From: an uncultured Candidatus Altimarinota bacterium
GTDB taxonomy: Bacteria > Patescibacteriota > Gracilibacteria > BD1-5 > UBA6164
Direction of reading: 5' to 3'
Length of the DNA stretch: 39,075 bases
NCBI GenBank assembly: GCA_937931775.1
Contig: CALHAQ010000010.1
Coordinates: 1 to 39,075 of the forward strand
The notes beneath the pieces were generated by a model, which was given only the letters and a program-made list of their open reading frames with translations, did no database searches and was not told the DNA's origin. Of the stretch, positions 20,976 through 36,235 are shown one piece after another (positions within the stretch are counted from its first letter, which is position 1; the number at the start of each line of letters is the position of its first letter). The position numbers and the translations under genes were made by a program.

Positions 20976-22511
20976 ATGATATCTTTAACACGCGCAATAA
21001 CAGTCAATGGACTTGATACAACAGTGGTTGATATAGAAGTAGATATTAACCAAGGCCTTCCAGCTTTTACAATAGTAGGGCTCCCAGACCAATGAGTACA
21101 AGAGAGTAAAGAGCGACTTCGCAGCGCTCTCAAATCAAGTGGAGCAAAAATACCCCCCAGTAGAATTACCGTAAACCTTGCTCCTGCAAATATTAAGAAA
21201 ACATGACCAAGTTTTGATCTGGGTATTGCGATAGGAATACTGCTCGATCAATGATATATAAAAAACGACACACTCATAAAAGACTCTGTATTCCTGTGAG
21301 AACTCTCTCTTGATGGATCCCTTCGTCATATACCTTCTGTACTTCCAGCGACTATCTGAGCCCGAGAAAAAGGCTTTAAGCGACTCTTTATTCCGAGTGC
21401 TAATACTAAAGAAGCTTCGGTGATACCAGATATAGAAGTTATAAAAATAGATAATCTCACGCAACTCATCGATATTCTCAATGCGGATGAGCTATACACT
21501 CCAGAACCTATACTCGATATATCATCTCTCAGGGAAGAGAAAATAGAATGATGATATGATTTTGCGCATGTAATAGGACAAGCTCATGCAAAACGAGCTC
21601 TTGAGATAGCAGCTGCTGGATGACACAATATCCTCATGGAAGGACCTCCTGGTTCTGGAAAGACGCTTCTTGCAAAGTCTTTTGCTACAATACTTCCTGA
21701 TCTCACGCTCGATGAGGCTGTAGAAATATCAAAAATATATTCTATATCTGGATTATTATCCAACGAAAGACCACTCATAGTAGAAAGACCATTTAGAGCT
21801 ATTCACCATACCGCAAGTAGCGCAAGTATAATAGGTTGAGGAACGCAAGCAAAGCCTGGAGAGATATCTCTTGCTCACAAAGGAGTACTCTTTCTTGATG
21901 AAATACTCGAATTTCAAAAAACTGTTCTTGAGGTACTCCGACAACCCCTCGAGGATGGGGAGATAACAGTGACCAGGGTAAACGCAAGTTATAACTACCC
22001 AGCCAAGTTTTCACTCGTAGGAGCGATGAATCCGTGTCCTTGTGGATATCTGACTGATCCGGATAGGCAATGTATTTGTAGTGTAAATCAGATTGCTAAC
22101 TATAGAGGAAGACTCTCAGGACCACTCATGGATCGAGTAGATATGTTTATAGAAGTACCAAAAGTAGCTACAGAGGAATTTCAAAAAGCAAAGTGAGTAT
22201 TAGCTGAGAATTCTCATGAAGTACAGCTTCGAGTACAAAAAGCAAGAGATATACAGCTCGAGAGATTTACTGACAGTACACTTTCGGCAAACTCTGAAAT
22301 GTCTTCGAAACAAGTGAAAGAGATATGTGTTCTCGATAGTGAGGGAGAATGAATCCTTTCCTCAGCTGTAAAATCTATGGACCTCTCAGCCCGTAGTTAT
22401 TATCGTATACTTAAATTATCCAGAACTATAGCGGATCTTCACGGAGACAAAGATATTCTCACTGAACATATACTTGAAGCTCTCAGTTTTAGAAAGAAGG
22501 ATGAGAATTAG
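20976..22511 (+). CDS. comM: YifB/ComM family Mg-chelatase-like AAA+ ATPase
   Basis: 511 aa. N-terminal Lon-protease-like region, Walker A GPPGSGKT, GVLFLDE, and CPCGY...C.C. TAG at 22509. Confidence 0.88.
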
Positions 22512-22551
22512 AAAAATATTGACTTTTTCTAAAAATATATATCATACAGTT

Positions 22552-22632
22552 ATGAATACACAAATATTTACATCTACGCATCATACGACGCAAGAATCGA
22601 AAACGATTTTTACGTGTATTTTTGGTATGTAA
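22552..22632 (+). CDS. leader mini-ORF 1a, MNTQIFTSTHHTTQESKTIFTCIFGM
   Basis: 26 codons. CAT CAT at 22579..22584 and seven Thr codons. It shares the first 13 nt (ATGAATACACAAA) with the lysA leader mini-ORF. Confidence 0.35.
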   Translation: MNTQIFTSTHHTTQESKTIFTCIFGM

Positions 22633-22650
22633 GTATTTCAATAATATATA

Positions 22651-22686
22651 AAAAAGCTGTTTTCGAAAAGAAAGCAGCTTTTTTAT
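22651..22686 (+). terminator. intrinsic terminator after mini-ORF 1a
   Basis: AAAGCTGTTTTC-gaaaa-GAAAGCAGCTTT (one G-U pair) followed by TTTT. Confidence 0.6.
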
Positions 22687-22703
22687 TTTCTCACTTTCAA
22701 GCT

Positions 22704-22751
22704 ATGAAAGCAATTTACGCAAGACATCACGAAGCCCATTGAATCTTTTAG
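22704..22751 (+). CDS. leader mini-ORF 1b, MKAIYARHHEAHGIF
   Basis: 15 codons, three of them His (CAT CAC at 22725..22730, CAT at 22737..22739). Read with TGA=Gly. Confidence 0.3.
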
Positions 22752-22771
22752 GAACAACAAGATTATTTTTA

Positions 22772-22806
22772 TGACTCCTAAAAGAAATTTTCAGGAGTTT
22801 TTTATT
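22772..22806 (+). terminator. second terminator-like hairpin of the tandem leader
   Basis: ACTCCT (22774..22779) / AGGAGT (22793..22798), extendable by A-U pairs, then TTTTTT. Confidence 0.45.
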
Positions 22807-22824
22807 TATTTTAAAATTATTATT

Positions 22825-23160
22825 ATGAACAAAAAATTATGAGAAACATGGAAAGAAAATGCTTTACTTCAGACTCAAGAAGTAGCTCCATATTATATGG
22901 AATATATGAAGGAAGCTGTAATTTGTACATTGGAATGAAAATATTCCCTGAGAGAACTAGCAAGTATGGGGCAACAAGTATATGAGAATATTGTAGTTGA
23001 AGAGTCAAATAAAAAGGATGCTATGTATTCTAGATGAGATCTAGGGAGGCCATGAATTATGGATGGATGACCGAATGAAAAGGAGTTGTTTTACCCCGAA
23101 GCCCAAAAATGTAGAAAGATACTTCAGGGTTACGGTTTTCCTAAAATAAGTGACTTATAA
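22825..23160 (+). CDS. hypothetical protein (111 aa)
   Basis: ATG 22825 to TAA 23158 with five TGA=Gly. An in-frame ATG at 22771 would add 18 codons but lies inside the terminator-like hairpin. Confidence 0.5.
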
Positions 23161-23182
23161 AACTTAGCACTAAATCCTTTTT

Positions 23183-23211
23183 GAGAAGTATAAAGTTTCT
23201 TTATACTTCTC
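23183..23211 (+). other. perfect 13-bp hairpin 26 nt upstream of the hisS start
   Basis: GAGAAGTATAAAG-ttt-CTTTATACTTCTC, with only a weak T tract after it. Confidence 0.5.
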
Positions 23212-23236
23212 ATTATATATTTAAATATTATATCTT

Positions 23237-24529
23237 ATGCAACTTTCAACAAATCCACCAAAATGAACCGCGGACTGGTTCCCAGAAGAATATAAAGTGA
23301 GAAAACATGTATTTGATACATGGAGAAGTGTATGCCAGAGCTATTGATTTGAGGAATATTTAGGTCCTCTTGTAGAATCTACGGATATCTGGAAAGCAAA
23401 GAGCTGAGAAGATGTTGGAGGATCCGAACTTACTCAGATTCTTAATCGTGAAGGAAAACAGTCAGGACTCGCAATTCGTCCAGAAATGACTCCCAGCGTA
23501 ACGCGTATGGTAGCAAGTAAGTGGAAGGAAATTGAGAAACCTGTGAAATGGTTTTCTATTGCAAATTTCTATCGTAATGAAAAACCCCAAAAATGAAGAA
23601 ATAGAGAATTTTGGCAACTCAATGCTGATGTATTTGGAGATGAGTCAGAAAACTCAGATATTGAAATACTTACACTCTCACTTGAACTCATGAGAGCATT
23701 TAATCCACCATGTGGAAGTTATAAGCTCAAGCTCAATCATAGAAAACTGATAGATGCATTTTTCTCTGAAGTACTTGGAATAAAGAAAGACAATCAAAAA
23801 AAGGACTTACTCAGGCTTCTCGATAAATATGAAAAACTTCCAAAAGAAGTATTTGAAAAAGATCTAAATAGCCTAGGGATTTCTACTCCTGAACCGATAC
23901 ACGCTTTTATGTCTGCTAAAAATATAGATGATATACAAAAAGAATTCCTTTCTTTAGCTGGAAATAAGAGTCTAGAAGAATTTACACATATTTCTCAGGT
24001 TCTCACAAGTCTCTGATATGATAATGAGATAGAATTTTCAGGAAGTCTGATTCGAGGATTTGATTATTATGATGGAATCATATTTGAAATGTTCGATACA
24101 AATCCAGAAAACCCAAGAGCTCTTTTTGGGGGTTGACGATACAATGGTCTTGCAGATATATTTTGAGTGAAGCAGGGTATTCCTGCAGTATGATTTGCAC
24201 CAGGGGATGAAACAATGAAACTCTTCCTCGAGTGACATGGTCTTATAGAAGATATTCAAAATACAAAACAAGAGACTATATTTGTTCCTCTACTAGAAGA
24301 GGGGCTATTTACAGATATCCAGACTATAGCAACGAAGCTCCGAGCAAAGTGAAAAAAAGTTACAGTAGGACTTGCTCCTCGTAAACTCGGGAAAGCTACC
24401 CAAACTGCAAAGAAAAAATGATATACTCAGATAGTTATCTACTGAGAAGATGAACAAACGTCAGGAAAGTATATTCTAGAAAATCTAAATACGGGAAAAC
24501 AAGAAAAAATCAATTTCCAAAACACATAA
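23237..24529 (+). CDS. hisS: histidine--tRNA ligase
   Basis: 430 aa. [42 protein letters not shown], and FGGGRYNGL (TGA at 24134..24136). Confidence 0.9.
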
Positions 24530-24547
24530 AATATATATACTTATTAT

Positions 24548-24613
24548 ATGAATACACAAACTATAAAACAAATAAAACCTTTTGGAGCTTCTCCTCTGGT
24601 TTTTGTTTTGTAA
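24548..24613 (+). CDS. leader mini-ORF 2, MNTQTIKQIKPFGASPLVFVL
   Basis: Two AAA Lys codons (24566..24568, 24575..24577). Same 13-nt 5' end as mini-ORF 1a. Confidence 0.3.
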   Translation: MNTQTIKQIKPFGASPLVFVL

Positions 24614-24635
24614 TTTGTATATGAATTAAAAGATA

Positions 24636-24666
24636 AAAATTTCAGGAGAAACCCTGAAATTTTTTA
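24636..24666 (+). terminator. intrinsic terminator between hisS/mini-ORF 2 and lysA
   Basis: AAATTTCAGG-agaaac-CCTGAAATTT followed by TTT. Confidence 0.65.
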
Positions 24667-24683
24667 ATAACTAAAATATAATT

Positions 24684-32605: not shown

Positions 32606-33256
32606 ATGGCATCATTTGCAATTACAGCTGACGTTCGTGACGTAAATCAAAAAACATCAGAAATTAGACAGACAAGAAGAGTTCCAGGTATTGTATACGG
32701 GAAGACTCAAGAGCCTATTTCTCTTACATGTGATAGCTCTGAATTTCTCAGACTTCACAGAAAAGCTGGTGAAAGTAATATCATCAACCTCAAAGTTGGA
32801 AAAGTAGATTTAGAAGTACTGGTTCATCAAACTCAAAAGCACCCAGTTTCATGAGAATTTACTCATGTAGATTTCTATGCAATTACTAGAGGTGAAAAAC
32901 TTCAAACAAAGATTCACTTTAATTTTATTGGTGAAGCTGCTGCAGTAAAAGAAGGAGCTATTATAGAAGAATCTCTCAGAGAGATTGAAGTAAAATGTCT
33001 TCCAAGAGATCTTGTAGATCACTTTGATGTGGACATATCTGTTCTTAATGCTGCTGGAGATGCTATTAGAGTATCTGACCTTGGTATTGATACGGAAAAG
33101 TACGAACTTATAACTGGTGAGGATACACTTATAGCTGCTGCTACTCTTCCGAGAGCTGAAGTTGCTGCTGATGATGAAGTGGAAGGAGAAGAAGCAGTTG
33201 AAGGAGAGGAAACAAAAGAAGGAGAAGAAGGTGAAGTGTCATCAGAGGAATCGTAA
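32606..33256 (+). CDS. rplY: 50S ribosomal protein L25 / general stress protein Ctc, with acidic tail
   Basis: 216 aa. ...RRVPGIVYGK...NLKVG...VLVHQTQKHPVSGEFTHVDF. Two track fragments joined by a TGA. Confidence 0.88.
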
Positions 33257-33276: not shown

Positions 33277-33309
33277 GACTTCCTCAATACACTTTGAGGG
33301 AGTTTTTTA
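33277..33309 (+). terminator. intrinsic terminator after rplY
   Basis: ACTTCCTCAA-tacact-TTGAGGGAGT (one G-U pair) followed by TTTTT. Confidence 0.6.
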
Positions 33310-33327
33310 TTTACTTAAAAATAAATC

Positions 33328-35771: not shown

Positions 35772-35807
35772 AAAATGCTTTCTTAGTAATAAGAAAGCAT
35801 TTTTTTT
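35772..35807 (+). terminator. intrinsic terminator after the lipoprotein gene
   Basis: AAATGCTTTCTTA-gtaa-TAAGAAAGCATTT followed by a T-run that overlaps the next -35 box. Confidence 0.7.
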
Positions 35808-35839
35808 GACAAAATCATCTTTCAAAATATCATAACGCT

Positions 35840-35890
35840 ATGAATACAAAACAGAACTGGCACCTGCAACCCCTAGACCCTTCTTTATAG
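35840..35890 (+). CDS. leader mini-ORF 3, MNTKQNWHLQPLDPSL
   Basis: 16 codons. Pro codons at CCC 35870..35872 and CCT 35879..35881. TAG at 35888. Confidence 0.35.
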   Translation: MNTKQNWHLQPLDPSL

Positions 35891-35924
35891 TAGGGGTAGT
35901 TGTTTTGACGATATAATTTCAAAA

Positions 35925-35957
35925 ATCTCTCCTGACTATATAGGAGGGATTTTTTTT
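35925..35957 (+). terminator. intrinsic terminator of the proS leader
   Basis: ATCTCTCCT-gactatat-AGGAGGGAT (one G-U pair) followed by TTTTTTT. Confidence 0.65.
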
Positions 35958-36043
35958 AATCTTTATATTCTAAACATAACAAATAACATGGGACCACAAA
36001 TAACAAACATACTCAGATACTAAATGACACCTGAAAAGAATTC

Positions 36044-36235
36044 TTGCTTGATCTTACGCGTGATACGCTCGGAGTAGATATCACTTTAGATCAGATACAT
36101 GATATACTTTCTCTCCAATCTCGTCTACAAAAAGATAGTGATACGGGGAGATGGAAAATCCAAAATAAAAAGAAGCATTGATGATATCTGAATATAGATA
36201 CATTTCGAGAAAAAATTTTACAAAAAATAACTTAA
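36044..36235 (+). CDS. possible small protein (63 aa if it starts at TTG)
   Basis: The frame is open from 35987 to TAA 36233 with two TGA=Gly. The translation LLDLTRDTLGVDITLDQIHDILSLQSRLQKDSDTGRWKIQNKKKHGGYLNIDTFREKILQKIT looks protein-like, but there is no in-frame ATG. Confidence 0.25.

Follow-up and report, generated by a model that had tools for sequence, protein, structure and literature searches.

What is the function of two short open reading frames (ORFs), each containing adjacent histidine codons and each followed by a terminator-like hairpin, in a spacer upstream of a histidyl-tRNA synthetase gene? This question is raised by a 39,075-nucleotide (nt) stretch of contig CALHAQ010000010.1 (assembly GCA_937931775.1) from an uncultured Candidatus Altimarinota bacterium, which we refer to in full as the window. 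In the window, a 313-nt spacer separates comM from an ORF of 111 amino acids (aa), here called p111, that lies upstream of hisS. The spacer contains a promoter, a leaderless ORF 1a, terminator 1, ORF 1b, and terminator 2, and we refer to this arrangement as the His element. An earlier note on this DNA had proposed His-tRNA-dependent attenuation, given His codons in both mini-ORFs. That proposal is supported by our finding of conserved mini-ORFs, conserved His codons, and alternative RNA pairings. We estimate a probability of about three in four that the comM-p111 spacer consists of two serial ribosome-mediated transcription attenuators that sense charged tRNA-His. The features of the spacer, with RNA pairings as predicted, are as follows.

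22519..22545, + strand: leader promoter, with -35 TTGACT (22519-22524), a 15-nt spacer, and -10 TATCAT (22540-22545)
22552..22632, + strand: ORF 1a, 26 codons plus stop, MNTQIFTSTHHTTQESKTIFTCIFGM; His codons 10-11 (CAT CAT) at 22579-22584, stop at 22630-32
22587..22616, + strand: 12-bp segment 1:2 hairpin that immediately follows the His codons
22598..22665, + strand: antiterminator 1, in which segment 2 (22598-22619) pairs with segment 3 (22644-22665, including the 5' arm of terminator 1)
22648..22686, + strand: terminator 1, a 17-bp stem with an upstream A tract and a downstream U tract, about -20 kcal/mol
22704..22751, + strand: ORF 1b, 15 codons plus stop, MKAIYARHHEAHGIF; His codons at 22725-22730 and 22737-22739, TGA at 22740 read as Gly
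22742-22764, + strand: hairpin AAUCUU/AAGAUU
22743-53 and 22776-85, + strand: antiterminator 2, in which X2, AUCUUUUAGGA (22743-53), pairs with UCCUAAAAGA (22776-85), the 5' arm of terminator 2
22773..22803, + strand: terminator 2, a 7+4-bp bulged stem followed by U6

Most of this anatomy had been recognized before. The earlier note had described TTGACT, 15 nt, TATCAT, 6 nt, and the ATG at 22552 following comM; the CAT CAT codons of ORF 1a (22579-22584) ahead of a strong terminator; an ORF 1b (22704-22751) with three His in 15 codons; and a second terminator-like hairpin. We found each of these as described, with the two stems mapped to 22648-22686 and 22773-22803, and with the reading of ORF 1b given TGA as glycine. 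The AATCTT/AAGATT hairpin after ORF 1b was also present, at 22742-22764, but its conservation was limited to a single related locus, L003.

The window has a G+C content of 34% and was read with genetic code 25 (TGA = Gly), as is appropriate for Gracilibacteria. Translation with table 11 fragmented every gene in the window, and table 25 restored comM, hisS, lysA, and proS, which justifies reading the TGA codon in ORF 1b as glycine. The long ORFs under code 25 comprise a ribosomal-protein cluster, secY, an ABC transporter, comM (20976-22511), the 111-aa ORF, hisS, lysA, and proS.

The nearest public relatives of the window were all metagenome-assembled genomes of Candidatus Gracilibacteria. We collected loci (designated L) from a scan anchored on histidyl-tRNA synthetase (HisRS) with one genome per species, from one metagenome DNA-pattern scan, and from twelve exact-protein look-ups, and we searched the collected loci with an nhmmer profile of the His element. 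The element was present in 11 distinct copies among approximately 21 related comM..hisS loci (the window, L057, L003, L063, L021, L035, L002, L009, L062/L046, L004, and L064). About 10 loci of the same synteny had no element, including L001, L005, L056, L059, L061, and L065-L067, and in L020 the upstream sequence was too short to judge. The metagenome pattern scan returned 35 loci, of which four contained the element (three of them new) and the remainder were chance matches. In every copy the element was on the same strand as hisS and upstream of it by 0.4-1.6 kb. The mean column identity of the element was 71-81%, whereas the HisRS proteins of the same genomes were only 67-78% identical.

We asked how far the arrangement departs from chance. 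Relative to shuffled sequence, folding of the 286-nt region gave a z of -5.8 and folding of unit 1a gave a z of -8.4. The dipeptide His-His (HH) occurred in 1.3% of the window mini-ORFs of 10-40 codons, and the probability of HH together with a third His within 14 random residues was approximately 6e-4. The arrangement exceeds chance. An alignment across relatives and a count of His codons against background had both been suggested in the earlier note; the former showed the mini-ORFs and their His codons to be conserved, and the latter yielded the enrichment given above.

Unit 1a has the signature of a leader peptide at the level of its codons. The ATG at 22552 sits 6 nt past the -10 box, and thus the predicted transcript is leaderless or nearly so. 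TTGAC or TTGAT and TATNNT at matching spacing (15-16 nt between boxes, 6-7 nt to the ATG) were found in nine of the ten copies compared; the L003 promoter has no clear -35. ORF 1a is 26 codons long with its stop at the same position in 11/11 copies. His10 and His11 were invariant, with exchanges only between CAT and CAC, and codon 12 was also His in six copies. Codons 3-9 and 12-14 varied at all three positions, such that within codons 3-14 only the identity of His was kept. As read from the alignment, this variation is the pattern expected of a leader peptide in which only the regulatory codons matter. The ratio of nonsynonymous to synonymous variation (pN/pS) was 0.48 in frame compared with 0.84 and 0.78 out of frame, a modest translation signal. 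The 3' half of ORF 1a (SKTIFxCIF) was nearly invariant at the nucleotide level as well, without synonymous variation, which points to a constraint on the RNA. ORF 1a of the window also has seven Thr codons, for which dual sensing or coincidence had been considered. Among the copies only Thr3, Thr7, and Thr18 recur; the other Thr codons are found nowhere but in the window and in its closest relative, L057. We therefore reject dual sensing and attribute the Thr richness to coincidence.

Competing structures are predicted for the RNA of unit 1a. The segment 1:2 hairpin, an RNAalifold consensus of 10 sequences, ranged from -9 to -18 kcal/mol, with one C-G pair changed to U-A in four sequences and several G-U pairs changed to A-U. 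In our model it acts as a pause hairpin and an anti-antiterminator. Terminator 1 ranged from -14 to -20 kcal/mol across genomes and contained a compensatory G-C to A-U change in two of them. The antiterminator 1 helix joins CGAAAACGAUUUUU..GUGUAU (22598-22619) to AUAUAU..AAAAAGCUGUUUUCG (22644-22665), and the pairing of GAAAAC (22598-22603) with GUUUUC that had been put forward previously proved to be the core of this 19-bp helix. We modeled a snapshot of transcription with a stalled ribosome, in which the folded RNA starts downstream of a ribosome at the His codons and ends at the terminator loop, before synthesis of the terminator 3' arm. The minimum free energy (MFE) structure of the snapshot was antiterminator 1 in 10/10 genomes, at -16 to -19 kcal/mol, in the same range as terminator 1 itself. 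The 19 pairs were standard in 98.9% of alignment cells, compared with 36-69% when the partner strand was slid. The geometry also fits: 2 nt separate the His codons from segment 1, and segments 2 and 3 flank the stop codon, so that a ribosome finishing ORF 1a would mask the upstream strand.

The coding signature of unit 1b was considerably stronger. The peptide M-K-A-[IV]-Y-A-R-H-H-E-[AGD]-H was retained in eight copies, and the ORF had 12-15 codons in nine; it was degenerate in L062 and entirely absent in L004. We found a pN/pS of 0.088 in frame compared with 2.1 and 1.1 out of frame, and third positions accounted for 9 of the 15 variable sites. In L009 the original ATG was lost, and an 8-nt insertion provides a new in-frame ATG. 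This substitution pattern, together with the replacement start codon, indicates that ORF 1b is translated.

Terminator 2 and its competitor also changed in concert. The stem sequence of terminator 2 turned over between genomes while the hairpin and U tract were retained, and in L062/L046 loss of terminator 2 coincided with a change of the HH of ORF 1b to HF. Antiterminator 2 was the MFE structure of the 1b region in the window, and X2 contains the 1b stop codon (UAG, 22749-51), with HH 15-20 nt upstream. RNAalifold gave no consensus for unit 1b owing to indels and competing structures, and we used a duplex analysis of each genome instead. In 8/8 genomes X2 formed a duplex with the terminator arm, at energies between -9.7 and -13 kcal/mol. 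In L063 and L009 both strands were changed, and X2 paired with its own arm at -11.9 and -10.2 kcal/mol, respectively, compared with -2.6 to -8.2 kcal/mol for foreign arms. Antiterminator 2 thus covaries.

As a control, we calculated the energy gained when the 5' arm of a terminator was allowed to pair with the 58 nt upstream of it. The gain was -8.9 kcal/mol for terminator 1, -9.6 kcal/mol for terminator 2, and -10.3 kcal/mol for the terminator of a unit before lysA described below, whereas most gene-end terminators of the window gained 0 to -1 kcal/mol. Both terminators of the His element have conserved upstream competitors, placed where the position of a ribosome would decide the pairing. 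The sole other strong case was the terminator at 33277-33310, which follows a gene at 32606-33256 and gained -7.9 kcal/mol; it could represent chance or another switch.

Taken together, these results suggest the following model. Transcription would begin at the AUG of ORF 1a or 1 nt before it. When His-tRNA is plentiful, the ribosome would reach the 1a stop codon and cover segment 2, terminator 1 would form, and the RNA would end at approximately 22690. When His-tRNA is scarce, the ribosome would stall at His codons 10-12 and cover segment 1 (22587-99); the freed segment 2 would then pair with the emerging 5' arm of terminator 1, and RNA polymerase would read through. The read-through RNA would carry ORF 1b, where the choice is repeated. 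A ribosome at the 1b stop codon would sit on X2 and allow terminator 2 to form, and stalling at His8-His9 would expose X2, whose pairing with the 5' arm of terminator 2 would let transcription enter p111. Transcription may also pass a weak hairpin at 23182-23212 and continue into hisS.

The genes that such a switch would control lie in a short cassette between the element and hisS, and the features downstream of the element in the window are as follows.

22825..23160, + strand: p111, a code-25 ORF of 111 aa with five TGA = Gly codons, the first gene past the attenuators
23181..23212, + strand: hisS promoter, with -35 TTGAGA (23181-86), a 15-nt spacer, and -10 TATACT (23202-07), overlapped by an inverted repeat at 23182-23212
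23237..24529, + strand: hisS, histidyl-tRNA synthetase (Pfam tRNA-synt_His, E = 3.5e-39)

The first gene after terminator 2 begins 18-25 nt downstream in every genome, and its identity differs by genome. The genes found between element and hisS are the following.

p111 family: window, L057, L004, L035, and L064
~320-aa and ~119-aa proteins: L021, L002, and L062
PRT-like and SLOG proteins: L003 and L063
252-aa protein: L009 (1304-2062) and L035 (~2120-2880)

Profile searches of Pfam, NCBIfam, and PDB gave no match for p111, and a large protein search with p111 found only the window's own protein and one relative (P0121, P0122). The public entries for both carry Trp at the five TGA codons, as if translated with code 4 instead of code 25, and such mistranslation probably hampers homology searches for TGA-rich genes of this kind. 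The ~320-aa protein likewise had no match. The best PDB profile match of the 252-aa protein was the ATP phosphoribosyltransferase HisG (1VE4), which covers the GxCRL and VQTGxSL motifs at a sub-threshold E of 0.14.

Several observations weigh against serial attenuation. In unit 1a, ACG replaces the ATG in L063. Of the 19 pairs of antiterminator 1, 14 never vary and none shows a double-sided change, and thus this helix is conserved but is not proven by covariation. In the full-length RNA, terminator 1 stays the MFE structure even when a ribosome mask is applied; the terminator of the classical trp leader is likewise more stable than its antiterminator. Each leader has only 2-3 His codons, and the 1b peptide is conserved well beyond its His residues, which a pure codon counter would not need. 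Half of the related loci do without the element, and hisS has a promoter of its own. Nothing but a hint from the weak HisG-like match of the 252-aa protein connects the cassette genes with histidine. Finally, a promoter-like TTTTCA-18-TAAAAT site (22788-22817) lies 7 nt before the p111 ATG and could drive p111 independently.

The strongest alternative concerns the target of attenuation rather than its mechanism. Under this variant, hisS itself would be the physiological target, the intervening genes would be passengers in a long hisS leader, and read-through would boost HisRS when charging of tRNA-His falls. Synteny is consistent with such an arrangement, in that hisS is the only gene found downstream of the element in all 11 genomes that bear it; we observed, however, that the element and the cassette are gained or lost jointly while hisS stays (L001, L056, L059, L061, and L065-L067). 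A proS unit of the same design (see below) lies approximately 25 nt before proS itself in L001, and aminoacyl-tRNA synthetase genes are classical targets of attenuation and T-box control (PMC2965389). The window element, in contrast, is separated from a gene that has its own promoter. TATACT was present 31-40 nt before the hisS ATG in 16/16 loci regardless of the element, with a TTGAGA-like -35 and a 15-16-nt spacer, and we conclude from this conservation that hisS has a promoter of its own in these loci. A stable hairpin also stands between the cassette and hisS in four genomes. In the window, the inverted repeat at 23182-23212 (13-14 bp, GAGAAGTATA..TATACTTCTC) has a poor U tract and spans the hisS promoter, and the same repeat is found in L057, L009, and L064 with conserved arms, a variable loop, and, in L064, a stem extended by G-C pairs. 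The 13-bp hairpin previously reported before hisS is therefore present, but it coincides with the promoter of hisS rather than forming part of a hisS leader; its possible roles are those of a weak cassette terminator, an operator, or both. We regard hisS as an unlikely physiological target. Since hisS has its own promoter and the intervening genes vary, we infer that the direct target of the attenuators is the downstream cassette (p111 here), with hisS at most a secondary read-through target.

Promoter-like sites in this lineage had -35/-10 spacers of 15-16 nt and not 17 nt. Several ORFs started 6-7 nt past a -10 box, which suggests leaderless mRNAs, and the genes are without Shine-Dalgarno sequences.

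A second alternative is that ORFs 1a and 1b are stand-alone small genes, encoding micropeptides and/or small RNAs, that end in constitutive terminators. In that case the His residues would have a role in the peptide itself, such as metal binding, and conditional read-through would not take place. The purifying selection on KAIYARHHEAH past its His codons would suit a functional 1b peptide, yet a conserved -10 box is missing before ORF 1b, where positions A2 and T6 were not kept among copies, and thus its expression would require read-through of terminator 1. ORF 1a does lie between a conserved promoter and a very strong terminator, but HH is all that is conserved as amino acids in its N-terminal half, which is the signature of a leader peptide. 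The variable downstream genes and the separate hisS promoter also speak for this alternative, and attenuator RNAs and leader peptides are reported to act in trans in other bacteria (PMC6614838, PMC7298713). Stand-alone genes would not account for conserved upstream competitors of both terminators at positions decided by a ribosome, nor for the same architecture with matching codons before Lys-pathway genes and proS. We consider this alternative improbable.

Still less probable, in our judgment very much so, is an RNA sensor, either T-box-like or a ligand-binding riboswitch, in which the ORFs would be incidental. T-boxes are common before hisS in Firmicutes, and the 3' half of ORF 1a, highly conserved in nucleotides without synonymous variation, could be read as part of such a sensor. 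For the T-box (RF00230), cmscan gave no match even with E relaxed to 10, and we saw no T-box motif in the sequence itself. At gathering thresholds, a scan of the whole window with Rfam gave no family match in the region, and ARAGORN found no tRNA there. A permissive Rfam scan (E up to 10) gave only Thr_leader on the terminator, with 29 bits against a gathering score of 55. His_leader (RF00514) was not matched anywhere in the window at gathering, nor in 22400-23350 with E allowed up to 10. An RNA sensor would also leave the 1b coding signature and the HH pattern of ORF 1a unexplained. Last, the idea that terminator 1 merely serves comM and that the mini-ORFs arose by chance in an AT-rich spacer fits the location of the element directly after comM in the window and L009, but is effectively refuted by the comparative data, since conservation and coding signatures rule out chance and in L003, L021, L062, and L064 the element follows a gene for acetate kinase or a Cu-oxidase_4 protein and retains its own promoter.

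Serial attenuation by the His element thus remains our preferred explanation, and two other units in the window resemble it.

24514-24672: Lys unit before lysA, a leaderless mini-ORF MNTQTIKQIKPFGASPLVFVL followed by a terminator
35806-35958 (19942-20092 in L001): Pro unit before proS, MNTKQNWHLQPLDPSL followed by a terminator

The Lys unit was kept in nine other loci, always preceding lysA or an aspartokinase gene (lysC); copies are located in L058 (3440), L003 (12407), L061 (5976), L062 (5340), L002 (3442), L064 (6457), L065 (5297), and L067 (5684). A Lys codon occupies position 10 or 11 and is closely followed by a small hairpin. With the ribosome stalled, the modeled antiterminator was -18 to -22 kcal/mol compared with -12 to -16 kcal/mol for the terminator. 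The Lys antiterminator pairs UUCUCCU..GGUUUUUGUUUUG with the 5' arm of the terminator, and both helices covary in L002. The lysA unit is a candidate lysine leader-peptide attenuator. Our literature search on lysine-codon leader peptides found no described lysine leader-peptide attenuator; Lys genes are normally controlled by the L-box riboswitch.

The Pro unit keeps Pro11, and its stalled-ribosome fold pairs the stop-codon region with the 5' arm of the terminator; the window and L001 both show this pairing, each with a sequence of its own. It lies close to proS in L001, and in the window an insertion of approximately 280 nt sets the unit apart from proS. An open frame of 70 codons, NDTGKEFLLDLTRDTLGVDITLDQ..., occupies 36023-36235 in this part of the window; it lacks an ATG start, has no Pfam match, is absent in L001, and may be a gene remnant or an insertion. 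The lysA and proS units thus have the look of attenuators for Lys and Pro that are built on the plan of the His element.

The resemblance does not extend to a shared RNA motif. A 13-mer, ATGAATACACAAA, had been noted at the start of ORF 1a and in the lysA leader, with its first 9 nt before proS. We found it exactly twice, at 22552 and 24548, with the first 9 nt at 35840, and this sharing was not significant as a motif, since a search with 2 mismatches gave 6 matches in the window against 3.3 expected. The 13-mer mainly reflects an MNT(Q/K) start, and the same start is present in ordinary genes (836 in the window; lysA of L004). The three units have no relation to one another past the promoter and the initial 13 nt, and we rejected the 13-mer as an RNA motif or small RNA seed. 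The His, Lys, and Pro units would thus share a design rather than a common RNA motif, as far as their sequences tell.

We can combine these observations in a broader reading, which we offer tentatively as possible rather than probable. The lineage might run a family of leaderless "MNT..." leader-peptide attenuators, with a two-stage unit for His, a unit for Lys before lysA or lysC, and a unit for Pro before proS. The His unit would gate a swappable cassette of uncharacterised genes as a histidine-starvation response in a host-dependent bacterium with a reduced genome, and KAIYARHHEAH would be an arrest peptide or functional micropeptide in addition to a codon counter.

If the His element works as modeled, tight coupling of transcription and translation and leaderless initiation would be implied in these organisms. 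It would also mean that, even with reduced genomes, these bacteria keep track of whether individual tRNAs are charged. For p111 and the other orphan families near hisS, "induced when histidine is short" would be a functional handle. The Lys and Pro companions suggest that the lineage may regulate amino-acid genes generally in this way, with possibly the first case of lysine-codon attenuation. A text search of the literature on attenuation and leader peptides in Gracilibacteria, Patescibacteria, or other candidate-phyla-radiation bacteria found no cis-regulatory attenuator. What appears to be new here is a two-stage leaderless layout, together with uncharacterised target genes, in a group without described attenuators.

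By analogy, the proposed mechanism matches the leader-peptide attenuators of his, trp, and pheST. The hisL leader of E. coli and Salmonella contains a short ORF with seven consecutive His codons, and a stalled ribosome favors the antiterminator. The His element resembles hisL (RF00514) in its His-codon leader ORF, alternative hairpins, and intrinsic terminator. It differs in that there is no similarity in sequence or covariance model, each ORF has 2-3 His codons instead of seven, the ORF is leaderless, two attenuators are in series, and the downstream genes are not for His biosynthesis. In E. coli, the pheST leader (pheM) governs a synthetase operon through a terminator and a leader peptide with many codons for the cognate amino acid. 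Unlike the His element, pheM acts in one stage immediately before the synthetase genes, and its ORF is led by a Shine-Dalgarno sequence.

Outside Proteobacteria, Naville & Gautheret 2010 (PMC2965389) predicted His leader peptides before a hisS paralogue and hisZ in bacilli, which share with our element a His-codon leader and premature terminator tied to the hisS family. No sequence relationship to those predictions is expected, and they differ from the element in Gracilibacteria, a different phylum, where code 25 is used, variable genes part the element from hisS, and hisS has its own promoter. For leaderless small ORFs, two actinobacterial reports describe polycysteine ORFs in mycobacteria that attenuate operonic genes, not necessarily via an intrinsic terminator (bioRxiv 10.1101/834739), and the ilvBNC leader of Corynebacterium, a leaderless short-ORF attenuator (PMC11857589). 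As described there, these systems also have a regulatory ORF at the 5' end of the transcript and sense one amino acid, but the amino acid and the lineage are different.

The serial arrangement has its counterpart in tandem T-box and riboswitch leaders, such as thrZ of Bacillus subtilis, in which consecutive termination switches of the same specificity sharpen the response. The His element would likewise subject the genes behind it to two consecutive switches that both respond to charged tRNA-His. In the thrZ type, uncharged tRNA or a ligand is sensed through the RNA, whereas in the His element a translating ribosome would read each stage.

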